Source of the DNA: an uncultured Dehalococcoidia bacterium
Lineage (GTDB): Bacteria > Chloroflexota > Dehalococcoidia > Lucifugimonadales > JAAXIE01
Reading direction: 5' to 3'
Assembly: GCA_951813255.1 (NCBI GenBank)
Contig: OX638353.1
Coordinates: forward strand, 3,084,782-3,148,781
Length of the DNA: 64,000 nucleotides
Position numbers and translations under genes: made by a program
In this document: positions 2,451 to 46,745 of the stretch, one piece after another
Layout: every line of letters starts with the position of its first letter
Numbering within the stretch: position 1 is the stretch's first letter
The notes under the pieces: model-generated
What the model was told of the DNA's origin: nothing
The model's database searches: none
Seen by the model: only the letters and a program-made list of their open reading frames with translations

Positions 2451-2987
2451 ATGGCACGAGTCCCATTGAAAAATCGCGAGGATCTGTCGCCTGAAGACCA
2501 GCCGATATGGGATGAAGTAGGCAGTAGTCGTGGAGGCGTGGCCCCTAACTTCCAAGCCATATTCAACAACCCCCAAGCCGCGGGCAACCTAGCCCACTTG
2601 GGAGGCTACGTCCGCTTTGGCAACAGCCTCGACGAGAAGACCAAGTCCCTTGCAGCCCTCACCACTGCCCGCGAGGCTAATGGAGAGTACGTCTGGACGG
2701 TGCAGGTGCCCGGTGCCAAGCGAAACGGCATCAGCGATGCGACCATAGAGGCCATCCACCAGCGCACCGCTCCCGCGGGGCTCAGCGATGACGATGCCAT
2801 CATAGTGCGCTTCATCCAGGAATTGCAGCGTGACCACCATGTGTCCGATTCTGCTTATGCTGCCGCTGAGGGCAAGCTCGGCACAGCAGGCGTGGTGGAC
2901 CTTCTCATTCTCACCGGCTACTACTGGGGCTTGGCCCATACCCTGAACGGGCTGCAGGTAGACCCTCCTGGGGGCTCCATTCTGTAG
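2451..2987 (+). CDS. carboxymuconolactone decarboxylase (AhpD-like) family protein
   Basis: 178-aa ORF with GGAAGGAG RBS. Helical CMD-like sequence (FQAIFNNPQAAGNLAHLGGYVRF..., LILTGYYWGLAHTLN). Confidence 0.7.
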   Translation: MARVPLKNREDLSPEDQPIWDEVGSSRGGVAPNFQAIFNNPQAAGNLAHLGGYVRFGNSLDEKTKSLAALTTAREANGEYVWTVQVPGAKRNGISDATIEAIHQRTAPAGLSDDDAIIVRFIQELQRDHHVSDSAYAAAEGKLGTAGVVDLLILTGYYWGLAHTLNGLQVDPPGGSIL

Positions 2988-3057
2988 TCTCCTATCTGCT
3001 GGTCGTGCCCAGTCCTCAGCTGACAGCCCTTCATATCGCGAGTCCAGGAGGTTCCCA

Positions 3058-3441
3058 ATGCCAGGAGAGCCCATCATTCCCGCCGGTTCGGCTCCGCCTC
3101 TTGCACCATATTCCCCCGGCATGAAGTCGGGCAACACCATCTTCGTTTCCGGCACCATTCCCAACGACGCCAATGGCAACGTGGTGGGAAAGGGCGATAT
3201 CGTTGCCCAGACCGAGCGGGTGCTGGAGAGCGTCAAGGCTATCCTGGAGGCTGGCGGTGGCAGTATGGAGGATGTGGTGATGAATCACGTCTTCATCACC
3301 GATTACGCCAACTATGCCGCGATGAACGAGGTCTACGGCCGTTACTTCGGCAACACCCGCCCAGCGCGCTACTGTATCAAGTCAGAGTTGGTACATCCCG
3401 ACTGGCTGGTCGAAATCGCTTCCGTGGCGGTGCTGTCCTAG
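3058..3441 (+). CDS. ridA: RidA (YjgF/L-PSP) family enamine/imine deaminase
   Basis: 127 aa with AGGAGG RBS. PLAPYSPGMKSGNTIFVSGTIP...ARYCIKSELVHPDWLVEIASVAV is canonical RidA. Confidence 0.85.
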   Translation: MPGEPIIPAGSAPPLAPYSPGMKSGNTIFVSGTIPNDANGNVVGKGDIVAQTERVLESVKAILEAGGGSMEDVVMNHVFITDYANYAAMNEVYGRYFGNTRPARYCIKSELVHPDWLVEIASVAVLS

Positions 3442-3508
3442 TCTTCGCGCCAGAGCCACCTGAAAGCATTCTTTTCCACAGAAGTACAGCGAGAAGAAGG
3501 AGGTGCCC

Positions 3509-4381
3509 ATGCCTGATGGTAGAATCCGTGTAGGAAACGTGGAGGTTATCGGGCTGACCGACGCCTCCTTGGACTTTCCCCTGCCCCTCAGTGCCCTCTT
3601 CCCCGGCGTCCCAGCCCCCGCGTGGGACCCCTTCCGCCAGCGTTACCCCGACATCTTCCCCAGCCCCGATTCAGCCCACTTCCATTTTGGCTGTTATCTC
3701 ATCCGCTCAGAAGGCCAGACAATTCTGGTAGATACCGGCATCGGCAATGCCACCACAAACCCCGGCATTCAAGGGATGATGAGAGTGGACGGTCGCCTTC
3801 CAGCGGAGTTGCTCTCGCTCGCGGTGCGTCCCAGCGACATCGATACCGTTTTCTTCACTCACCTGCACATCGACCATGTGGGCTGGAACCTGAGCCAGCA
3901 TGGCCCCAATGCCAAGGCCACCTTCCCCAGCGCCCGGCATGTGATGCACCGAGCCGATTGGGAGTTCTTCCAACAGCCAGCCCAGCAGGAAGCGGCCAAG
4001 TACTGGGATGAGACCCTCGGCCCACTCGAGAGCTTGGGCTTGGTGGACCTTCTCGACGACGAGAAAGCCCTCACCAGTGAAGTGACTGCTGTTCCCTACC
4101 CCGGCCATACACCTGGCCACATGGTGCTGTCCATCGCCTCCCAAGGGGAGCATGCACTGGTGATCGGGGATGCTGCGATACATCCTGCACAAATTACTGA
4201 ACTCAACTGGGGCGTCATCTTCGAGTCGGACCAAGCGATGGCTGCGACCTCTCGACACCTGCTTTTCAGCCGGGCCGAGCATGACGACGCCACGCTGGTA
4301 GCCTGCCACTTCCCCGGCAAGGGCTTTGGCAAGCTCATCCGCGTCGAAGGGCGACGCTACTGGGAGAGCCTCGACATCTAG
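3509..4381 (+). CDS. MBL-fold metallo-hydrolase
   Basis: HxHxDH motif (FFTHLHIDHVGWN) and a later GHTPGH. ATG at 3509 preferred over GTG 3503 because the GAAGGAGG RBS ends at 3503. Confidence 0.8.
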   Translation: MPDGRIRVGNVEVIGLTDASLDFPLPLSALFPGVPAPAWDPFRQRYPDIFPSPDSAHFHFGCYLIRSEGQTILVDTGIGNATTNPGIQGMMRVDGRLPAELLSLAVRPSDIDTVFFTHLHIDHVGWNLSQHGPNAKATFPSARHVMHRADWEFFQQPAQQEAAKYWDETLGPLESLGLVDLLDDEKALTSEVTAVPYPGHTPGHMVLSIASQGEHALVIGDAAIHPAQITELNWGVIFESDQAMAATSRHLLFSRAEHDDATLVACHFPGKGFGKLIRVEGRRYWESLDI

Positions 4382-4437
4382 AGCGACTACATTTCATCCA
4401 AGCCCATCCAGCAACACATTTTGATAGGAGGCCCCCC

Positions 4438-4905
4438 ATGCAAGTAGAAGCCAAGCTCAAGGAAATGGGGATCGAGTTGATTTCTATGCCCAACAGGTCA
4501 ACGGGCAACTTCATTGGCGCCCGGCGCACCGGCAACTTGGTGTACACGTCCGGTCACGGCGCTGGAATACCCGAAGGCGGTTTCCTTCACGTAGGCAAGC
4601 TGGGGAGCGACCTGACCATCGAGCAGGGATACGCCTGCGCCCGCCAGACCATGATTAACCTGCTGACCACCCTCAAGGCTGAGATCGGCGATTTGGACAA
4701 GGTGAAACAGGTGGTCAAGCTGCTGTGCATGATCAACTGCGCGCCAGACTTCGGCGACACCCCAAGCGTAGCCAACGGCGCGTCTGACCTGCTGATTGAA
4801 CTCTATGGCGACTCCGGCCGTCATGCCCGCTCAGCAGTCGGCATGGGCTCCCTTCCCTCGGGTATGCCCGTGGAGATTGAGATGATCGTCGAAATCGAGG
4901 ACTAG
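4438..4905 (+). CDS. RidA/YjgF-like family protein (second, divergent paralog)
   Basis: 155 aa with AGGAGG RBS. ARRTGNLVYTSGHGA...ARSAVGMGSLPSGMPVEIEMIVEI resembles the YjgF fold family. Confidence 0.7.
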   Translation: MQVEAKLKEMGIELISMPNRSTGNFIGARRTGNLVYTSGHGAGIPEGGFLHVGKLGSDLTIEQGYACARQTMINLLTTLKAEIGDLDKVKQVVKLLCMINCAPDFGDTPSVANGASDLLIELYGDSGRHARSAVGMGSLPSGMPVEIEMIVEIED

Positions 4906-4909
4906 TGCC

Positions 4910-5995
4910 ATGAAGTTCGCCCACTTCTCCCAATTGTTCAACAAGGTGGGGATGGAGACGCCGGCGCGTTACGAGCAGATGTGGCGCGAGGTGGAATTGG
5001 CGGACGAGCTAGGCTTCGACTACGGTTTTCAGTCGGTACACCACTTTCACAAGCTGCGTCCCACGCCCGCGGTCTACTGCACGGGTGCGGCAGCCCGCAC
5101 TAAGCATTTGCGTTTGGGGCCCATGGGGTATACCGCAGGGCTGCATGACCCCATCAGCATCCTCGAAGAGGCCTTGGTGCTGGACAACATCACCAACGGC
5201 CGCTTCGAGTTGGGCCTGGTTTTCGGCGTCTATCCCGACTACTTCCGGGTGAAGGGCGCACAGCCGTCCATACGTCGCGAATGGGCAAAGGAGACGGTGC
5301 AGCTTGTAAACGCCTTCTACAAGCACGCCCGAGAGGCCCCCACCGACGGTGCGGGTCTCTTCAGCTTCCACGGCCCCATCCACAACTACGAAGAAGTGGA
5401 GTTCGCCATTCGCCCCGTGCAGCAGCCCGGGCCGCCCATCTGGCTCGCCTCTACCCAGCGGGAGACGATGCAGTTCCTAGCCCAAGAGGGTGCCCACGGT
5501 GGCTACCTGCACCTCAGCGACCGTCAGGAGATGTCGCCGCGCATTCAGGAGTTCCTAGCGTGGTGGGGTGAGGCGGGACACCCACAGCCACCCAACATCG
5601 GATACCTCTGCTTCGTCTACGTCGATGAGACCGATGAGTTGGCCATTCAGAAAGCCACACCGTGGGTGATCGCCAGCACCCGCGAGGTGTACGAGAACAC
5701 ACCTCGCCAAGGAGGCGTTTTCTCCCAATCTGAGGAGAAAGTTGGCCCACGCAGCGACGAGATATTCCGGAACAAGACGGACATCGACTTCCTGTTGCAA
5801 CGTAACCTAGTCTTCGTGGGCTCTCCGGAGACTGTGGCCAACCGCATCCGCGAAGCCGCTGGCGAGGGCATGTTCAACACGGTGATGGCGGAGTTCAATA
5901 TCGGCGCTGTTGGTGAGGAAGACCTGATGCGCTCCATCAATCTATTCGGCCAGCAGGTCATTCCCGCCCTGAGGGGATTCGATCCCACCTTGTAG
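4910..5995 (+). CDS. LLM-class (luciferase-like) flavin-dependent oxidoreductase
   Basis: 361 aa. MKFAHFSQL...YEQMWREVELADELGFDYGFQSVHHF is a typical LLM N-terminus. Confidence 0.8.
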   Translation: MKFAHFSQLFNKVGMETPARYEQMWREVELADELGFDYGFQSVHHFHKLRPTPAVYCTGAAARTKHLRLGPMGYTAGLHDPISILEEALVLDNITNGRFELGLVFGVYPDYFRVKGAQPSIRREWAKETVQLVNAFYKHAREAPTDGAGLFSFHGPIHNYEEVEFAIRPVQQPGPPIWLASTQRETMQFLAQEGAHGGYLHLSDRQEMSPRIQEFLAWWGEAGHPQPPNIGYLCFVYVDETDELAIQKATPWVIASTREVYENTPRQGGVFSQSEEKVGPRSDEIFRNKTDIDFLLQRNLVFVGSPETVANRIREAAGEGMFNTVMAEFNIGAVGEEDLMRSINLFGQQVIPALRGFDPTL

Positions 5996-39143: not shown

Positions 39144-39356
39144 GCTATTGCCTTCCGGCCCTTTGCCTTCCCATCAGAAAGAACCATGATACACCCAAGC
39201 TGTACGAGGAGGAACATTGTGCTATCTGGCCAGATACGCGCACACTGCGACATTTTGGTAGGCTTTGTGAGTGGCAGCCGGGCCTTCCTTAACCCGATAG
39301 GCGGAGGTTCAGTGGGACAGAACATCGCCTCCCAAATGCTCACCCGAGATAAATGA

Positions 39357-39569
39357 ATGCGCCGACACTTGCTGCCCATCGCTTTGCTCATAGCCATGGC
39401 CCTGCTGTGCTTCCTTGCCCTGTATTTGGTGATGGGTATGCTTGAAGGAGAGAACCACGATTCCTATTGGGAGGAACGAGGACTGGGTAACTGCAACCGG
39501 ATACATGCAGAGGTGAAGGGCGGTGTGTGGGTATATGAGTGTCGGGACAGACCTGATGACTTCCAGTAA
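39357..39569 (+). CDS. hypothetical small membrane protein
   Basis: 70 aa with an N-terminal TM helix (LLPIALLIAMALLCFLALYLVMGML). AT-rich region. Confidence 0.35.
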   Translation: MRRHLLPIALLIAMALLCFLALYLVMGMLEGENHDSYWEERGLGNCNRIHAEVKGGVWVYECRDRPDDFQ

Positions 39570-39572
39570 GCG

Positions 39573-39929
39573 CTACCCTCTCAGTGGGACGGACTCAAGC
39601 TCTTGATCTATGGGATTGACCTTGAATCCAAGAATCTCCAAAGACGTGGCCCCAAGTAGGACTTGAGTGTCCTCCGGCCCAAACCATATGGGGCACGGAG
39701 ACTTCTTACCCTGGCACTCTATCATCACCATGCCAACATCCCGCCACTCGATCGAGTCATTGCCAATTACTACCATATCCTTTTCAGGTAAGGGGTGGAC
39801 GCTCAGTTCATGCAACATAGTCGCAGGAGCCTTGGACTTGGTAGCTCCGGTATCGACCAACACCTCAACCTGTCTGGCCTCACCACCATTGACATTGGAT
39901 ATATGTATATACGTTACGACTGATCCCAC
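39573..39929 (-). CDS. stand-alone retropepsin-like (clan AA) aspartyl protease domain protein, second copy
   Basis: VLVDTGAT, CPIWFGPE and LLGATSLEILGFKVNP align with 15136-15486. GTG 39929 (AGGAAG/GAGGAG upstream) gives 118 aa, matching the paralog's 116 aa. The track ORF extends to 40196. Confidence 0.6.
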   Translation of the reverse strand: MGSVVTYIHISNVNGGEARQVEVLVDTGATKSKAPATMLHELSVHPLPEKDMVVIGNDSIEWRDVGMVMIECQGKKSPCPIWFGPEDTQVLLGATSLEILGFKVNPIDQELESVPLRG

Positions 39930-40322
39930 ACTTAAAGCTTCCTGCTCCTCATAATTGGATCGAGCGGGGTTCGACGTCGGCTGGGTTGTAAGCGCGTAGA
40001 ATGTCAGCGCTGGGGCGCTGCTCACACACACACGCATGGGGAACGCCGTGACGGAGGCATCACCCAGGAACGATGAACTAATGGCAAAGACTTCCGGCAA
40101 GGAAGCATGCAGGGCTGGACCATGGTTCATCTGGGGGCCTACCACCAAGAAGAAGAAGGATACGACCATAGTGGCGGCGACGGGCAGGTCTGGCATTGGG
40201 CCATCCTGTTACCCTCATGCGATACTCATACATTGGAGCGAGCATCGAGCTGAGGGAGCGCACCGTCACTTCGGAGCGCGAGAAATGGACCATCCCAACC
40301 GGATAACTGAGGATGATTTGTC

Positions 40323-41024
40323 ATGAAAACCATCACAAACAGGCGAGCTCTGGCAACGGTGACTCTGATTGTACTGATGGCAGGATCGATACTGGGATAC
40401 ATGGTTTATCTCAGTGGAGATCAAACGGTGTCTGCTCAAGAGGCAGGACGAACGGCCCTGGGCGAGCGCGACAGTCTGATCGACAGTCTCACCGAAAACT
40501 CCGTCCTATATCAGAAGTTCCAGCTGACTAGACAGTTGGAAGGTGACTATCCCAACGTGGTGACTCAAGAATCGTGGCAACAGGTGGACTCTGACGGTAA
40601 TATGTCAGCTGAGTACACCGAGACCCGAAACCAGAAGGGTGTGCTGGTCGCGACCTCCCGCAGTACAAGCGAGATCACCGTCTTCACTGACCTCATATCA
40701 GGTCGGTCAGAGGAAATGTCGTCTCTGGTAGGCAGTGATCTAACCTCATGGATAACCCACATCTGGACACTCCCGCAGATATTGGGGGATGGTGACTACA
40801 CATCCAGTGGTAGTGGGACGCTGAATGGTCAAAGCAGCAGCATCTATGAGACCACAGTCCGCCTACCAGCAGATGAGTTTGGACCAGCAAGGACGTTCAG
40901 GAAGGAAGTGGAGTTAGTCACCGACCGACCTCTCCTGTACAGACAATCCACATACGATCAAAGTGGAACCCTCTTAAATGAGACAACCTTGCTGAGCTAT
41001 AAGGTAGTGCAGGAAATGCCCTAG
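40323..41024 (+). CDS. hypothetical membrane-anchored or secreted protein
   Basis: 233 aa. N-terminal TM/signal anchor (ALATVTLIVLMAGSILGYMVYL), Ser/Thr-rich body, about 47% GC. Confidence 0.5.
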   Translation: MKTITNRRALATVTLIVLMAGSILGYMVYLSGDQTVSAQEAGRTALGERDSLIDSLTENSVLYQKFQLTRQLEGDYPNVVTQESWQQVDSDGNMSAEYTETRNQKGVLVATSRSTSEITVFTDLISGRSEEMSSLVGSDLTSWITHIWTLPQILGDGDYTSSGSGTLNGQSSSIYETTVRLPADEFGPARTFRKEVELVTDRPLLYRQSTYDQSGTLLNETTLLSYKVVQEMP

Positions 41025-41056
41025 AGAGTTCCCTGAACATAGTGTGCTGAACCTGT

Positions 41057-41099
41057 GGCGTCTGATATCAGCGATCACGTAACGCTGATATCAGACGCC
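41057..41099. terminator. perfect 17-bp inverted repeat between convergent genes
   Basis: GGCGTCTGATATCAGCG (41057-41073), 9-nt loop, CGCTGATATCAGACGCC (41083-41099). Each arm also contains the palindrome CTGATATCAG. Confidence 0.45.
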
Positions 41100-41391
41100 T
41101 CCACCAGCCCCTCCTCCGGTCAGACTCATGGGTGAACACCTTAGTACTGGATGCTCGACGCACTACCCCATGTTCGCGTACCCATAGTGTGAGTTCCTCA
41201 TATGGGATAGGTGGCCCACTCCACACCACCTCATTATTCTCTCGAGTCACGAAGACCTCTACCATGGCATCCTCTCCTGAGGGAAAGACTTCAGGGTTGA
41301 TCCACACAGGATCAGTGTCTTGTCCCATCTTCATCTGACCGCTCCTTACATCGACCAGTTGTTGACATCCAAACGGCCGGACAGATACCAT
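41068..41391 (-). CDS. hypothetical protein
   Basis: 107-aa ORF (possible internal start MKMGQDTDPVW). No motif recognised. Confidence 0.4.
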   Translation of the reverse strand: MVSVRPFGCQQLVDVRSGQMKMGQDTDPVWINPEVFPSGEDAMVEVFVTRENNEVVWSGPPIPYEELTLWVREHGVVRRASSTKVFTHESDRRRGWWRRLISALRDR

Positions 41392-41840
41392 TTGAAACGA
41401 GCCACCCTAGGTTGTGTTGGCAGGATTGGCTGCATACTAAGCAGTTCCCGCCTTGGGCCTAGGGTGGCTCTTCTGGATAATACACAAATGCTCAAGAACC
41501 CTGTCAAGCCCTGATATCAAATGACACCGAGAGAGAAAATCGAGTGTGTGATCCTAGGGATGTTCATTCTAGGATGTGTTGGATTCGTCTTGGCTTACCT
41601 AGGCGCTGCGTGGCTGTCAGTTCTGAGGCAGTGGACAGTATGGTGAGGGCATGATTACGCCGCCTCCGCTGCTGCACCTGCTCCGACCGAAGGAGCATTG
41701 GGTCGATGATGAGGTGTCCTACTGTACTGCCAAGGCCAACGCCCTGCGCCGGTACACCCACAAGGTGACGGAGTTCTCTCGGGAGCACTACCATCGTCGG
41801 CACAGTCGGAGATATCGGAGTTCCAGAGGCTCCACCCCGC

Positions 41841-42248
41841 GTGTCCGTGGAGACTCGCATCAACAGGGGTTACTCCGAGCGGGACTTGGACAACGCGATG
41901 GAGGCCATTCATTTCGCCCTGCTACAACAGGACGAGGTGGAGGACGCCGTTACGTCGTTTGACGACGGAACCATCGCGTCTCGCGTGGTGCTCTCCATCG
42001 GGACTCCAGCCGACAGCGCCCTCCGAGACCTGAGACGGTTGTCGGGGGAGATGCTGGTTCAAGACAAGTCCAACTTGGCCGACTACATCAGCGTCACCGT
42101 GGATGAGGTGGAGTCGACCGACGAACTCGGCGGAGAGGAGATCAGCAGTTACCACTATGGCGGTGAGGTGATCTCTGGATGCACGCCAGTACCGGATTTT
42201 TGCATTAATGCCCCCAACCCCTTGACAACCCCGAACCATATGTTCTAA
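41841..42248 (+). CDS. hypothetical acidic protein
   Basis: 135-aa ORF from GTG, followed by a terminator-like hairpin. No motif recognised. Confidence 0.4.
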   Translation: MSVETRINRGYSERDLDNAMEAIHFALLQQDEVEDAVTSFDDGTIASRVVLSIGTPADSALRDLRRLSGEMLVQDKSNLADYISVTVDEVESTDELGGEEISSYHYGGEVISGCTPVPDFCINAPNPLTTPNHMF

Positions 42249-42295
42249 CATACTCCTAGATGCACTAGAACAGTGCGTCAATTGCGCGCACTTGG

Positions 42296-42336
42296 GGACT
42301 GACCCCAAACAGGTCGGTCCCGGTGCGTCTTTTTTT
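42296..42336 (+). terminator. rho-independent terminator candidate
   Basis: GGACTGACC, 7-nt loop, GGTCGGTCC (one G-U pair), then a run of 7 T at 42330-42336. Confidence 0.45.
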
Positions 42337-42388
42337 GCCCGCATTCCTGCCGGGGCCACCACCAAAATCTCTTGGAGGTGCCCGCCCC

Positions 42389-43015
42389 ATGGACCAACAG
42401 CCCACGCACAACACCCCTTTTCGCTGCCGCCCCTGCGTCCTCATCTTCAGGCCCAGCCCCAACCCCACCATCGACGTCGTCCGTCTCCGCAAGTCCCTCA
42501 GTTACGACAACGACGTCTTCCGTTGCGCCCGCTGCGGCCTCCTCTTCAGCCCCCCAACCCTCTCTCACCTCTCCGTTCGTCCTGAAGTCGAAGGACACGC
42601 TCCTCAGCTACGACGTGAGACAAAAAAACCCAAGCTGAACAGCTACGAGCGTGAGACAAATGAGACCGCTTCCGCCCCCGAAAAAAAGTGCGCCAGCTAC
42701 GGCATAGGCCGCCCCTCGGCGCCTCGGTTCGTCCCGAATCGCCCCCCAAACTGCTTCTCCCAGATACGGCGTGAGACAGCAAAATCCAAGCTGAACAGCT
42801 ACGCACGTGAGACAGATGAGACAGGAAATAGCTACGAAAAACAAACTTTCAGCTACGACCGTTGTCTTACCCCTATCTGCAAGTCACCCCAGACCCGTCC
42901 CCAAAATCACGCCTCCCAGCTACGGCGTGAGACAGCAAAATCCAAGCTGAACAGCTACGCACGTGAGACAAGTGAGATCCGCCCCTCATTCCACACCTCG
43001 GAGGTGACAAGATGA
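42389..43015 (+). CDS. possible zinc-ribbon protein whose 3' half spans the repeat array (coding status uncertain)
   Basis: ATG 42389 with GGAGGTG RBS. N-terminus FRCRPC-x27-FRCARCG (CxxC...CxxC). The stop overlaps the terS ATG (ATGA). The C-terminal half is encoded by the 156-bp-period repeats. Confidence 0.35.
   Translation: MDQQPTHNTPFRCRPCVLIFRPSPNPTIDVVRLRKSLSYDNDVFRCARCGLLFSPPTLSHLSVRPEVEGHAPQLRRETKKPKLNSYERETNETASAPEKKCASYGIGRPSAPRFVPNRPPNCFSQIRRETAKSKLNSYARETDETGNSYEKQTFSYDRCLTPICKSPQTRPQNHASQLRRETAKSKLNSYARETSEIRPSFHTSEVTR
42603..42978 (+). repeat. array of three ~64-bp conserved blocks at an exact 156-bp period, each with two CAGCTACG-N2-3-CGTGAGACA motifs
   Basis: Full motifs start at 42605, 42640, 42761, 42796, 42917 and 42952. 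Degenerate half-sites at 42694, 42829 and 42850. 42765-42814 is identical to 42921-42970. Confidence 0.85.
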
Positions 43016-43434
43016 GTCGCAAGCAGGACCGGAAGAAACGCGCCTCCAAGAAGATTGCCAACAACACGGGGACCGTCTACGACGCCAGCCGCCGCTCAGC
43101 TAGCCAGCACAGGTTCCTCACTGCCCACCAGTTGGGTGCTCCCACCACGCAGGCCGCCCAAATCGCCGGAGTCTCCAGGGCCACCCTCTACCGCTGGCGC
43201 GATGAGGACCCCGAATTCGCCCAAGCCTGGCTCGAGTCCCGAGACAAGTCCATGGAGGACCTCGAGGTCGCAGCCTACAGGCGTGCCATCCAAGGCAACG
43301 ACCGCCTCCTCATGTTCCTCCTCAAGTCCCACATGCCCCTTACCTACAACAAGCGTCAACAGCCCATCACGCCTGACAAGTCCAAGAGCTTCAATTTCTC
43401 CGACATCGCCGAGAGGTTCCGCCAATGTCAGTAA
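43012..43434 (+). CDS. terminase small subunit-like HTH protein
   Basis: 140 aa with GGAGGTG RBS. HTH (TTQAAQIAGVSRATLYRWRDEDPEFAQAW) followed by an EDLEVAAYRRAIQGNDRLLMFLLKSHMP helical region typical of small terminases. Overlaps the terL start. Confidence 0.6.
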   Translation: MSRKQDRKKRASKKIANNTGTVYDASRRSASQHRFLTAHQLGAPTTQAAQIAGVSRATLYRWRDEDPEFAQAWLESRDKSMEDLEVAAYRRAIQGNDRLLMFLLKSHMPLTYNKRQQPITPDKSKSFNFSDIAERFRQCQ

Positions 43435-44912
43435 AACTCGTCCCTCCCAGACCCACCGTCAAGCAGGACGTCTCCACGCCGGATCTCTCCGGCTCCCCCC
43501 TCCCCATCTCGGATGATGAGGGCCTGATTATGGAGCGTTGCCTCCGCTCCCCCAGCCTCTTCGCCCGCAATATCCTCGGCGTCCAGCTCTGGAGCAAGCA
43601 GGAAGAGGTGCTGAAGGCCCTCCAAGGCCACAGGCGCGTCGCCGTCAAGGCCGGAAATGGCCTCGGCAAAGGCTTCACCGCCGCCGTGGCCGTCCTCTGG
43701 TTCCTCACCTGCCACTCCCCCGCCATCGTCCTCACCACCGCCCCCACCGCCCGGCAGGTCCGGCACGTCCTCTGGCGGGAGATCCGCCGTCTTCATGGCA
43801 ACCATGCCGACCTTCTGGGTGGCAGGATGTTCAACACCCGGTTCGAAATTGCCGACGATCGTTTTGCCCTAGGCCTGTCCACCGACGAGGCGGACCAGTT
43901 CCAAGGGTTCCATTCCCCCAACATGCTGATCGTGGTGGACGAGGCGGAGGGTGTAACCGAACCCATCTACGATGCCATCGAGGCAGTGATGACCACGGGC
44001 AACTGCAAGCTGCTGCTCATCGGCAACCCCACCAGCGACTCCGGAACATTCCGACGCGCTTTCCACGAAGACCGGCGTATCTTCCAAAACATCACCATAT
44101 CAGCCCTGGAGTCGCCCAACGTGGAGCAACAGGACGTGGTCATCCCTGGGCTGACCACAGGCGAATGGGTGGCGGAGCGCAGAACGATGTGGGGCGAGGG
44201 AAGCCCGATGTACCAAGCGCGGGTGCTGGGCAACTTCTGCGACCACCCCCAAGACAACCTCATTCCCCTGAGCAAAATCGAGCAGGCTATTTCTCTCTAT
44301 GCCGAGGGCTGCGATGATGACCCGCTGGCAGAGGAAGAGGAAGGAGCGAGTGAGCCGGCTGTGCTGGCGCCCACCGTACTGGCGCCCACCGTACTGGCAG
44401 TAGACGTAGCGCGCTTCGGCCCCGACCAGAGCGTGCTGCTGCTAGCCAACTCCAACAGGGTCCTGGACATTCAGACTCACCAAGGACTGGACACCATGGA
44501 ACTGACAGGCCGCATCGTGGACGCGTACCGCCAGTGGGCCCCCGAACGGATCGTGGTGGACGAAATCGGCATCGGAGCAGGCGTATTGGACCGCCTGAAG
44601 GAGCTTGACCTGCCAGTGTCGGGCATCAATGTAGGACGGCCCGCCCGGCAACGGCGTCAGTTCGCCAACCTGCGGGCCGAAGGCTACTGGAGCCTCTACG
44701 AGCTGTTCAACCAGGGAGCGATAGCAATCCCCAACGACCCCGAACTTGCCGGCCAGCTATCCTCCCTGCGCCACCGCTACAACAGCAAGGGCCAGTTCCT
44801 CATCGAACCCAAAGAGGAAACCCGTACCCGGGGCCTGCCATCCCCCGACAAAGCAGACGCCCTCATGCTGGCGTTCTTGAGGAACACGGGCGGTGTGAGG
44901 TTGCATACGTAA
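43425..44912 (+). CDS. terminase large subunit-like ATPase-nuclease
   Basis: Deviant Walker A (KAGNGLGKGF), Walker B (MLIVVDEAEG), LLLIGNPTS coupling motif. C-terminal RNase-H-like nuclease acidic motifs (LAVDVARFGPD, VVDEIGIGAG, SPDKADAL). Confidence 0.75.
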   Translation: MSVKLVPPRPTVKQDVSTPDLSGSPLPISDDEGLIMERCLRSPSLFARNILGVQLWSKQEEVLKALQGHRRVAVKAGNGLGKGFTAAVAVLWFLTCHSPAIVLTTAPTARQVRHVLWREIRRLHGNHADLLGGRMFNTRFEIADDRFALGLSTDEADQFQGFHSPNMLIVVDEAEGVTEPIYDAIEAVMTTGNCKLLLIGNPTSDSGTFRRAFHEDRRIFQNITISALESPNVEQQDVVIPGLTTGEWVAERRTMWGEGSPMYQARVLGNFCDHPQDNLIPLSKIEQAISLYAEGCDDDPLAEEEEGASEPAVLAPTVLAPTVLAVDVARFGPDQSVLLLANSNRVLDIQTHQGLDTMELTGRIVDAYRQWAPERIVVDEIGIGAGVLDRLKELDLPVSGINVGRPARQRRQFANLRAEGYWSLYELFNQGAIAIPNDPELAGQLSSLRHRYNSKGQFLIEPKEETRTRGLPSPDKADALMLAFLRNTGGVRLHT

Positions 44913-44992
44913 GGCACGTTGTCAGTGCTGGCCCATCCGTTGGATATAATGGCAATCAACACGCGGTATCAGAAATAAAACAGGGGGACAAC

Positions 44993-46006
44993 ATGGCGGA
45001 GTTCAAGATTGTGGCTCAGGGGCGTCCCAACTTTGTTGACGACTACAGGTTCGAGATGGAGGGGCTGCAGGGTCTGGATTATGAGATTACCGAGGTTCCG
45101 GCCGCGTCGGACGATGAGTTCCTAGCCGGGGCCCATGACGCGGACGCGATCATAACCAGGGACATGCCCCTATCCCAGAATGTGGTCAACGGGTTGGAGA
45201 AGTGCAGGATCATCGCACTGGACAGCGTCGGCACCGACTTGGTGGACGTCCGGGCGGCTACGGCCAAGGGCATCCCCGTAACCAATTGCCCGGACACCTT
45301 CGTCCAAGAGGTGGCCGAGCACACGGCGGCCCTGATCTTGGGCGCACACCGGCGGCTGTTGGCCGTGGACAGACTGGTCCGGGAGGGCCGCTGGGCGGAA
45401 GGGAGGCCGGCATTGTACCAGTTCCCCCGGCTCTACGGTCAGACGCTGGGGCTGATCTCCTTCGGGAACATCGCCAGGGCCGTAGTACCTTTGATGAAGC
45501 CCTTCGGACTCCGAATCCTAGCCCACGATCCCTTCGTCAGGGAGACCGTGATGGTCCAATTCGGCGTGGAGCCAGTGGGACTGAGGGAATTGCTTCAACG
45601 ATCGGATATCGTCTCAAACCATCTTCCCGGCACCGGCGGCACCAGGAGGATGATTGGGGAGGAGCAGTTCAGGATGATGAAACCCTTAGCGATTTTCGTC
45701 AACACCGGCAGGGGCTCCACCGTGGACGAGGCTGCCTTGGCAAGAGCCCTGGAAGAGGGCTGGATCAGTCACGCCGCGCTGGACGTGATGGAGACGGAGC
45801 CGCCGGACTCCGGCAACCCCCTCCTTGGCTTGGAAAACGTCACGTTGAGTGCCCACGTCGCCTCGGCGTCGGGCAGATTTGCAGAGGGAGCTAGGACCAG
45901 GGCAGGGAGGGAGATCGCGCTGGTGCTGAGGGGCCGCTGGCCCATGTCATGCGTAAACCCTTCAGTGCTGGACGACTCCGGCCTCCTCAGATGGCAGCCC
46001 GCGTAG
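44993..46006 (+). CDS. D-isomer-specific 2-hydroxyacid dehydrogenase family protein
   Basis: 337 aa. NAD-binding GLISFGNIARAV and catalytic-region FVNTGRGSTVDE...ALDVMETEP...SAHVAS. Confidence 0.85.
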   Translation: MAEFKIVAQGRPNFVDDYRFEMEGLQGLDYEITEVPAASDDEFLAGAHDADAIITRDMPLSQNVVNGLEKCRIIALDSVGTDLVDVRAATAKGIPVTNCPDTFVQEVAEHTAALILGAHRRLLAVDRLVREGRWAEGRPALYQFPRLYGQTLGLISFGNIARAVVPLMKPFGLRILAHDPFVRETVMVQFGVEPVGLRELLQRSDIVSNHLPGTGGTRRMIGEEQFRMMKPLAIFVNTGRGSTVDEAALARALEEGWISHAALDVMETEPPDSGNPLLGLENVTLSAHVASASGRFAEGARTRAGREIALVLRGRWPMSCVNPSVLDDSGLLRWQPA

Positions 46007-46277: not shown

Positions 46278-46745
46278 TCAGTCAGTCAGAATGTCGACAT
46301 TCAAGGCATTGTCGATAAAGTCCGCCCGTGAGAAAACCGACCTGTCAAATGGCCACGGGTCATATACCTTGCCTGTGTGAAGGCCGTATGCCGTGGTACT
46401 CCAGTATACGGGCCCACCACTATCACCGTCCTCCGAGTCGTGGGTCTCCATCATCAGCAGATTGCATGCGTCATTCATGCAAACATCCATCCGGCGCACA
46501 TCATTGCACTTCCGATTAGTCGATGCCCCGTTTCGGCAAAGACGCTGGCCATTCTCAGGAGTGCCTACCGCAGTGATAGACCTGCGATAGTCGGCGAGGC
46601 CCTTCCTTGGGAAACTGCAAGTATGTGCCTGAAAACTGCTAGTGGGTGTGCCGACGCCTGTCCGTCGCTTCAAGTTACTGATAGTCGGCGAGGCCTCCTT
46701 GGGTAAACCGCTCAGGACGAACGGAGGAGTAGCGGGCATTTCCAT
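46278..46745 (-). pseudogene. C-terminal fragment of a chymotrypsin-fold (S1, alpha-lytic/streptogrisin-like) serine protease
   Basis: 155-aa ORF carrying the Ser motif DSGGPVYW (preceded by GD) with C-terminal-barrel-like context. No canonical TAxHC His motif, and too short for a complete S1 domain. Confidence 0.45.

Follow-up and report, generated by a model that had tools for sequence, protein, structure and literature searches.

In phage lambda the cosB region carries the sites R3, R2 and R1, which are bound by the small terminase gpNu1, and in other phages pac sites lie inside the small-terminase gene (terS) itself, as in gene 3 of P22, in SPP1 with its pacL, pacC and pacR, and in P1, whose pac contains phased hexamers. 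The origins of P4- and SaPI-type satellites comprise two sets of iterons that flank an AT-rich or alternating centre just 3' of a primase or rep gene, and pneumococcal BOX elements are modular intergenic repeats. The reuse of promoter regions upstream of unrelated genes is likewise a described phenomenon (PMC3575422). The element considered here is an array of short, phased words located immediately upstream of a terS-like gene in an uncultured Dehalococcoidia bacterium. The array lies in a stretch of 64,000 nucleotides of contig OX638353.1 (assembly GCA_951813255.1; positions 3,084,782 to 3,148,781, forward strand), which was analysed as a whole and is referred to below as the window.

An original prediction, made from the letters of the window, had singled out this array as a candidate cos or pac region or, alternatively, as an iteron origin. 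The account favoured here, tentatively and with less than even confidence, is that the array represents an expanded small-terminase recognition region of pac- or cosB-like character, situated within a split-off 5' part of terS, as sequence comparison would have it.

Words and register of the array

The principal features of the locus, numbered by position in the window, are the following (nt, nucleotides; aa, amino acids; HTH, helix-turn-helix; dN/dS, ratio of nonsynonymous to synonymous substitution rates).

42389-43015, plus strand: open reading frame (ORF) of 208 codons that holds the array; GGAGG at 42374-42378; its stop and the ATG of terS overlap as ATGA
42389-42604, plus strand: N-terminal part of this frame, with two CxxC knuckles (zinc-ribbon-like), a 99-nt internal duplication and gene-like composition
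42605-42979, plus strand: the array, three blocks in an exact 156-nt register (word scans, repeat search and an alignment of 12 loci)
42632-42645, 42788-42801 and 42944-42957, no strand assigned: copies 1, 2 and 3 of the imperfect palindrome AAGCTG-AA-CAGCTA, read from the sequence
42808-42823, plus strand: TGAGACA heptamer pair B2/B2' in a 9-nt phase, with equivalent pairs at 42652-42667 and 42964-42979
42863-42871, plus strand: TGTCTTAC, the sole inverted heptamer (TGTCTTA, 42863-42869), complementary to the B1 (42651-42658) and B2 (42807-42815) heptamers
43012-43434, plus strand: small terminase-like HTH protein (TerS), 140 aa (phrog_4044, E = 2.6e-18; Pfam HTH matches; dN/dS 0.19 against the related locus L012)
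43425-44912, plus strand: large terminase (TerL), 495 aa (phrog_2, E = 1.8e-32; dN/dS 0.15-0.21)

The word CGTGAGACA is present in six copies in the window, all on the plus strand (42614, 42650, 42770, 42806, 42926 and 42962), against 0.68 expected by chance, and none of 100 shuffles attains six. It is accompanied by CAGCTACG or CAGATACG, with starts at 42605, 42640, 42761, 42796, 42917 and 42952; the two motifs of a pair start 35 nt apart, their CGTGAGACA halves being separated by 36 nt. A repeat search of the window recovers an 89-nt block three times at spacings of exactly 156 and 156 nt, and the segments 42765-42814 and 42921-42970 are identical over exactly 50 nt. The six motifs in three pairs with an exact 156-bp period that had been proposed are therefore genuine and far above chance expectation, and their six starts, the 35-bp distance between partners and the identity of blocks 2 and 3 over 50 bp were all re-read as originally given. 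Further half-sites of the CAGCTACG type occur in the array region at 42694, 42830 and 42850, the first and last as listed before and the middle one displaced by a single position from the 42829 given earlier.

Each 156-nt block opens with a type-A motif, CAGMTACG-N-CGTGAGACA; 35 nt further on comes a type-B motif, AAGCTGAACAGCTACG-NN-CGTGAGACA-NN-TGAGAYM. The gap inside the motif, formerly given as 2-3 nt, is 1 nt in type A, the first of the pair, and 2 nt in type B, the second. The palindrome, AAGCTG-AA-CAGCTACG, precedes each type-B motif, and its homologue in the word clusters of array-less loci described below is CTAGCTGGCCAG(A/C)TA(C/G)G. It is this AAGCTG-AA-CAGCT palindrome, and not the ACG-N-CGT core that had been taken for a dyad, that constitutes the symmetric element. 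Heptamers of the form TGAGAC(A/C) recur throughout, some of them as pairs in a 9-nt phase: a third heptamer stands behind each second motif in this phase (42661, 42817 and 42973), and those at 42616, 42772 and 42928 are unpaired. The earlier description was incomplete in that it contained neither the palindrome, the third heptamers and the inverted heptamer nor the host frame 42389-43015.

The array is composed of 122 C, 116 A, 83 G and 55 T (approximately 55% G+C), and its last position lies 33 nt ahead of the terS ATG. Tandem Repeats Finder does not report it, because the spacers have diverged. An oriented octamer of the Chi type was considered and set aside: outside the array CAGCTACG occurs five times in the window, all on the minus strand, and AGC-TAC codon usage explains this equally well.

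Conservation in the host frame

The GGAGG lies 10 nt ahead of the ATG of the frame, and gene callers predict homologous products in 17 other clusters; searches of Pfam and PHROGs give no meaningful family match for 42389-43015. The GC content by codon position (1/2/3) is 0.63/0.49/0.78 in the N-terminal part, resembling the neighbouring genes, and 0.50/0.53/0.61 in the array, which is not gene-like. In about half of the related loci the N-terminal part is either absent (L008, L018, L009 and L017) or degraded (L007 and L019). AlphaFold2, supplied with the family alignment, places short beta strands at the N-terminus with a predicted local distance difference test score (pLDDT) of 56-71 and leaves the repeat region unstructured at a pLDDT of about 50. 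The first CxxC knuckle was made by the 99-nt (33-codon) duplication, whose copies 42408-42454 and 42507-42553 are 72% identical, and the relatives have another first knuckle.

Pairwise comparisons of the array yield 12, 14 and 14, 14, 22 and 19, and 18, 23 and 17 differences at codon positions 1, 2 and 3, respectively, with dN/dS values of 0.58-0.92 that are only a rough guide in a nucleotide-constrained region. Among seven loci compared without gaps, the fractions of variable columns at the three positions are 0.53, 0.59 and 0.59, and pairwise dN/dS ranges from 0.6 to 1.4. The terL control, by comparison, shows 65, 45 and 191 differences and a dN/dS of 0.15 (range 0.15-0.21), and terS differs from that of L012 at 6, 11 and 24 sites, corresponding to a dN/dS of 0.19. 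The constraint at the level of DNA that had been proposed for the conserved islands is thus borne out by the flat variation across codon positions, and, as substitutions are not concentrated at third positions, the motifs are unlikely to be a mere coding repeat. In addition, CAGCTACG is translated as Q-L-R in type A and as S-Y-x in type B, that is, in two reading frames.

Most loci keep the frame open and retain its Shine-Dalgarno sequence and start codon; it is locally shifted in L009, L017 and L015, and truncating frameshifts are found in L009, L015 and P0008. Stop-creating substitutions are depleted in all three frames of the array, and as the strand is poor in T the stop test is weakly informative. 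The openness of the frame provides no more than moderate evidence for translation. Judged by these substitution patterns, nucleotides are conserved and amino acids are not, and the frame 42389-43015 is under no discernible selection at the protein level. P0008 (129 aa), situated on the same 3.4-Mb contig as the window, is a second, frameshifted copy of the frame that reads PSYGVRQQNP across a type-A motif. Exact-protein look-ups with TerL and with this paralogue returned no identical record.

Related loci and their contexts

Relatives of the array were gathered by look-ups based on TerL and on other proteins and are metagenome-assembled Dehalococcoidia loci; the number of independent lineages among them is perhaps five or six. 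Words and 156-nt period persist in thirteen related loci. In an alignment of twelve loci across the array gaps are almost absent, words and register are kept and the spacers have diverged, so that the expectation of conserved motifs among drifting spacers holds. The array precedes terS in a syntenic arrangement of valS, terS, terL and a dehydrogenase gene in five loci (the window, L002, L006, L012 and L019). L010/L011 and L015 have other surroundings, in which short remnants of the terS 5' end follow the array. At least five further contexts contain solo, promoter-led arrays, after which an amidohydrolase (L007), a glyoxalase (L008), a PNPOx (L018), an NfeD (L009/L017) and a gyrB gene (L014) are encountered. 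Altogether the promoter-led segment stands ahead of non-homologous genes in eight distinct genomic contexts. The proposed parallel with cosB and pac sites stands in so far as the array adjoins terS in five loci, and fails in that the solo copies deprive it of specificity for terS.

Copy number amounts to approximately two to three arrays per genome or sample, although several such copies could reflect strain variation or duplication in the assembly, for example L001/L005 and L002/L006. From the differing contexts it follows that the array is dispersed; the concern that it might be a generic dispersed repeat nevertheless applies weakly, as copy number is low and the distribution is restricted to one narrow lineage. 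A scan of JGI metagenomes for the A-to-B motif pair gave one chance match, inside an unrelated gene. Three blocks are the rule and five are present in L006 (4822-5531), where three of the 156-nt blocks are identical, which indicates a recent tandem expansion; in this locus the promoter and the first zinc knuckle have been lost and terS is frameshifted. Beside the solo array of L008 a divergent operon (2955-5152, minus strand) encodes a prohead protease (Peptidase_S78) and a major capsid protein. As this capsid operon neighbours an array devoid of terminase genes, head and terminase genes seem to reside at separate loci in these organisms.

Words linked to terminase genes in array-less loci and in phages

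Four terS-terL loci (L001, L003, L004 and L005) have no array. The start of their terS corresponds to that of the array-bearing frame of the window, and the 5' untranslated regions are homologous. Approximately 100 bp upstream of a divergent twin promoter, each of these loci harbours a cluster of about 200 bp, here termed type I, that contains roughly 7-12 TGTGACA/TGTCACA heptamers in both orientations, often in a 9-nt phase. The cluster also carries the palindrome CTAGCTGGCCAG(A/C)TA(C/G)G, the counterpart of AAGCTGAACAGCTACG, and its composite of heptamer, AGCTG-NN-CAG(C/A)TACG palindrome and heptamer is the same as the type-B motif. It lies outside any ORF. L015 possesses a full type-I cluster 3 kb upstream of its array, and a degenerate remnant persists in the window itself:

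39221-39253, plus strand: type-I remnant beside the valS start, with the perfect palindrome TATCTGGCCAGATA, ACGCGCACAC and TGCGACA (BLAST match to L001, L004 and L005)

L004 and L001 have differing contexts, and what they share is exactly the stretch that opens at the left cluster edge and closes some 30 nt short of the terL stop; the type-I cluster therefore belongs to the terminase module. Since the cluster is non-coding and its words occur in both orientations, they are best read as predicted protein-binding sites on DNA, and by homology the same would apply to the words of the array.

IMG/VR was also scanned for phased TGTGACA pairs with no terminase information as input, and this gave a second association, which rests on a small number of contigs. 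In two phage lineages, one represented by L079/L055/L131 and the other by L082, where a terL homologue comes next, TGTCACA pairs lie 35-60 nt ahead of the start of terS homologues that are 31% identical to the window TerS. Dense clusters of inverted heptamers occur upstream of terS, HNH-terS or terL in L121, L133, L138 and L078, and a TGAGACC scan detected a similar cluster about 0.7 kb upstream of an ORF of unknown function and terL in L246. A TerL-based viral scan found no relatives. The heptamer architecture is, on these gene predictions, a mark of the junction between replication and packaging genes in viral contigs. Inverted triplets of a 7-mer (TGTGACA or TGAGACC) in a 9-nt phase, with an AT-rich or alternating CG/CA centre, recur in phage contigs, often after a primase gene and before packaging genes, and have the appearance of a general architecture of origins or genome ends in which the word changes between phages. 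The sites are:

L121, 4985-5240: inverted-triplet site
L133, 75-330: inverted-triplet site
L199, 3195-3510: inverted-triplet site
L190, 640-910: inverted-triplet site
L209, 6295-6600: inverted-triplet site

In the three lineages with the TGTGACA word, namely the type-I loci and the two phage lineages, the recognition helix of TerS has the form xRRTxYRW; in the lineage using TGAGACA its form is S(R/K)ATLYRW. This correspondence between predicted helix and word is suggestive, though it represents one derived change.

A covarying helix

RNAalifold and an exhaustive scan of the alignment agree on one helix only, a 9-bp pairing of the B2 heptamer, or equally of B1, with the inverted heptamer. Four of its pairs have changed on both sides (AU to CG, AU to GC, CG to AU and GC to AU), and the 7-bp core has no broken pair. 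Of the helix cells 95.4% are paired, against at most 49% with a slid partner, 16 cells carry changes on both sides, and none of 500 shuffles matches the observed covariation. G.U pairs favour the plus strand. A second helix of at least 5 bp with 90% pairing was not found across the 12 loci. In terms of folding energy the local hairpin does not stand out from shuffled sequences (z = -0.9), and folding of the whole array gives z = -2.6.

In five loci, all without an intact terS, the B-type heptamers have drifted to TGCGGCC, which matches GGCCGCA; the drift fits a relaxation of protein reading with retention of the hairpin. The helix suggests a further constraint, on RNA or on a hairpin, that is absent from the original prediction, although covariation of this kind could in principle arise through one protein reading the word and its inverted copy. 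Two other structural candidates were discarded: the long-range AGCU-AGCU pairs proposed by RNAalifold occupy invariant columns and hence provide no evidence, and a hammerhead-like CUGAAC...GAAA has an unfit core, is not conserved across loci and is not recognized by Rfam.

Promoter, leader and terminase pair

Upstream of the host frame, two features complete the module:

42222-42251, plus strand: promoter-like TTGACA-N18-TAACAT with a conserved GTTCTA just ahead of the -10 element, found by promoter scan; left edge of the module
42284-42336, plus strand: hairpin in the leader, about 13 bp (GGGGACTGACC...GGTCGGTCCC) with an extension by GCGCAC/GTGCGT, then T7, read from the sequence; resembles an intrinsic terminator

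In the 64-kb window the pattern TTG[AC]C.-N-TTCTAnnAT has a single occurrence, and every related locus contains it singly or as a divergent pair. The window and L010 are homologous from 42221 onward, and the conserved unit extends from the -35 element to a few nucleotides past the last heptamer. The leader hairpin is kept in 11 loci, the array-less terS loci among them; it lies, with its U-run, about 30 nt past the likely transcription start, and expression therefore seems to need read-through. The promoter, of the form TTGACA-N14-GTTCTAnnAT, and the hairpin recur at L001 5268-5365 and in L003, L004, L005 and L018, and in several loci a back-to-back twin promoter of this type faces the opposite direction. 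A LexA or Cheo box was rejected for this promoter, as GTTCTA alone is conserved and there is no inverted repeat.

The terminase pair is flanked by valS upstream and a 2-hydroxyacid dehydrogenase gene downstream. TerL is 33-38% identical to phage terminases across 90% of its length; no PDB sequence matched TerS at an E value lower than 0.27. Orphan terL has approximately 1950 relatives (E <= 1e-5), many of them 59-60% identical and on contigs of up to megabases named Chloroflexi or SAR202, which suggests that a chromosomal terminase gene is widely kept in the phylum.

Weighing the readings

According to the favoured account, the words of the array would be recognized by one or more sequence-specific proteins that an orphan terS-terL module of phage origin encodes, most likely by the HTH small terminase, whose gene lies immediately downstream, and binding would serve DNA packaging. 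A word-bearing segment would have been inserted in the 5' end of terS and then duplicated in tandem, in frame, and the array part would later have been split from terS by a coupled stop and start. As the start of the frame corresponds to the terS start of array-less relatives and its stop is translationally coupled to the present terS start, the frame would stay open. Each 156-bp block would then offer one half-site with a heptamer (type A) and one palindrome with a phased heptamer pair (type B). The inverted heptamer would pair with a B-type heptamer to form a hairpin, in the transcript or in unwound DNA, and thereby impose a second, structural constraint. Arrays without terminase genes would be orphaned or hitch-hiking copies, read in trans.

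Several observations weigh against this account. The association with terminase genes is inconsistent across relatives: solo, promoter-led arrays show no terminase trace and yet retain the words, those of L008 and L018 resembling copies of an already solo form, and the four array-less terS-terL loci, with a promoter and leader hairpin like those of the window, carry the related word cluster instead. For packaging, a conserved promoter, Shine-Dalgarno sequence and start codon would serve no obvious purpose. Among the window neighbours of the terminase pair that were scanned, no match to portal, capsid or tail proteins (PHROG head/tail) was detected. The correspondence between recognition helix and word rests on one derived lineage, the array heptamers are oriented oppositely, relative to terS, from the phage pairs, and IMG/VR contains neither of the two array motifs scanned for (the A-to-B motif pair and the palindrome plus heptamer). 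Moreover, inverted, 9-nt-phased sets of TGTGACA or TGAGACC heptamers directly follow primase genes in L121, L199, L209 and L091, and the set in L198 adjoins the gene of an origin-nicking protein. These post-primase sets are more probably origin iterons than packaging sites, and as the architecture is the same, it does not suffice to tell origins and packaging sites apart.

The main rival, itself doubtful, is that the array belongs instead to a portable promoter-leader cassette, made up of a strong, unusual promoter, a terminator-like hairpin and a long word-bearing leader, which places any downstream gene under a trans-acting factor, the words being bound on DNA as a roadblock or operator, or on RNA. 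Such a cassette accounts better than a terminase site for the promoter, for the Shine-Dalgarno sequence with its start codon and for the downstream genes: conservation sets in at the -35 element and stops just beyond the last heptamer, the promoter type is unique in 64 kb and present in every related locus, and the Shine-Dalgarno sequence, start codon and words persist in solo copies. A co-oriented gene lies within 0-300 nt in seven of the eight contexts, the stop overlaps the next start in two unrelated ones (terS in the window and the amidohydrolase gene in L007), and the type-I cluster sits between the divergent twin promoter and the leftward gene. However, seven of eight is not significant in a compact genome, L010/L011 have no downstream gene to control, operators 350-750 nt past a promoter are unusual and the downstream genes have no theme in common. 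On this view the tie to the terminase module would be a coincidence or shared regulation, and the only candidate regulator is the TerS-like HTH protein itself. An array acting mainly as RNA, either a structured part of an mRNA leader or a non-coding RNA, is unlikely. Here single-stranded words (CAGCUACG and UGAGACC) would bind a protein or RNA partner, and a switchable B1/B2 helix would control translation or stability. The 9-bp helix with its four double-sided changes, intact 7-bp core and G.U pairs on the plus strand only speaks for this, as do its persistence at the UGCGGCC loci, the direction of all other words along transcription and the somewhat better folding of the whole array than of shuffles. 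Yet this is a single covarying helix in some 420 nt, locally no stabler than shuffles, without an Rfam family and open to explanation by one protein reading word and inverted copy; a palindrome with a 2-nt centre is unable to self-fold and suits double-stranded DNA, and the type-I words occur in both orientations.

Also to be weighed, and very unlikely, is a coding tandem repeat, in which a zinc-ribbon protein would have a disordered, repetitive tail whose peptides QLRRET, KLNSY and ETNET matter. The frame is open in most loci with its Shine-Dalgarno sequence, start codon and stop/start overlap, 156 nt correspond to 52 codons, a 12-nt deletion in L014 preserves the frame, the third-position GC (GC3) of the N-terminal part is gene-like with a plausible zinc ribbon, and in the array GC3 is highest in the ORF frame. 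Against these points stand the flat codon-position variation and dN/dS of 0.6-1.4, the conservation of the same 8-mer in two reading frames, the invariance of a rare CTA codon, the toleration of radical changes (ET to AA, L to R) where base pairing is preserved, the local shifts and truncations described above, the missing predicted fold and family match, and a depletion of stops that is not specific to the ORF frame. Highly improbable, finally, is the iteron-type replication origin of a satellite or defective element, offered originally as the alternative. The heptamer sets after primase or primase-helicase genes and beside the origin-nicking gene provide its support, but neither the window nor 13 related loci have a rep, primase or helicase gene near the array that could supply an initiator, an AT-rich block for unwinding is missing (the array has about 55% G+C, and 42-43 kb a fraction of 0.58), the words point nearly all one way, several chromosomal copies exist per genome or sample, and the array lies within a transcribed, open frame.

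An extension of the packaging account, itself distinctly unlikely, would regard the terS-terL pair as domesticated and the scattered, promoter-led arrays as signals for packaging initiation that are read in trans, with the solo arrays as chromosomal entry points of a system resembling gene transfer agents, or as selfish hitch-hiking cassettes. The element would be triple-coded by DNA words, hairpin and coupled frame.

Neighbouring features

Between the remnant cluster (39221-39253) and the promoter at 42222 lie about 3 kb (39300-42200) of lower G+C (0.54-0.55) with ORFs that resist annotation, and in L015 Mrr-like and AAA_15 genes are inserted at the equivalent spot; the gap between cluster and promoter seems to be an insertion hot spot. 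Genes for a retropepsin-like aspartyl protease (gag-asp_proteas / Asp_protease_2) are found repeatedly near the terS-terL module, at distances of up to a few kb and in varying position and orientation, and were assigned by family match at these places:

39573-40196 of the window, minus strand: retropepsin-like protease gene
L004, 8302-8760: retropepsin-like protease gene
L012, 2674-3030: retropepsin-like protease gene
L019, 2016-2369: retropepsin-like protease gene

A second dispersed repeat of about 125 nt (46586-46711) is situated in or beside a putative minus-strand ORF (46278-46745) and matches six tandem copies of about 94 nt in L001 (8682-9218) at 85-91% identity, as well as L006 10102-10290. 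A search of 41000-45000 against Rfam 15 gave no match at E <= 1, and at the gathering threshold Rfam reports one tRNA across the whole window and nothing in four related loci. A T-box ahead of valS was likewise dismissed, Rfam giving no match.

Significance and comparison with known systems

If the words are TerS sites, they would constitute a sequence-defined code for a TerS family, comprising heptamer, palindrome and a helix residue that changes with the word, and would indicate that a packaging signal can grow by in-frame tandem duplication inside the 5' end of terS; they would also offer a handle on the role of orphan terminase pairs. If the array is a portable regulatory leader instead, it would be an unusually large and elaborate case of promoter reuse. 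Under either reading an apparent ORF is held open while selection acts on nucleotides, which bears on the 'hypothetical proteins' of metagenome-assembled genomes.

In common with lambda cosB and HK97-type cos sites, the array presents short words immediately upstream of a small-terminase gene and beside an HTH-type TerS, and the related type-I cluster shares with cosB the presence of words in more than one orientation. In contrast to these sites, it extends over approximately 375 bp in a strict 156-bp period, much longer than cosB, and it lies inside an open frame, next to a terminase without nearby virion genes and also in terminase-less copies. With the pac sites of P22, SPP1 and P1 it has in common the location of words in what is, in evolutionary terms, the 5' coding part of terS and the arrangement of short words in phased groups, whereas its separation from terS by a stop/start overlap and its expansion by tandem duplication set it apart.

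The origin iterons of P4 and SaPI-type elements resemble the array in their 7-mer words at a 9-nt phase, an architecture that viral contigs show after primase genes. Unlike in these origins, a replication gene, an AT-rich centre and symmetric inverted sets are all missing from the window, and a palindrome is interspersed among the array words, which recur at 156-bp intervals. Reused promoters (PMC3575422) and BOX elements offer the parallel of a homologous promoter-leader ahead of non-homologous genes, modular and variable in unit number. They differ from the present segment, which occurs about two to three times per genome or sample, measures approximately 0.55-0.8 kb, contains an open frame and is tied by homology to a terminase module.

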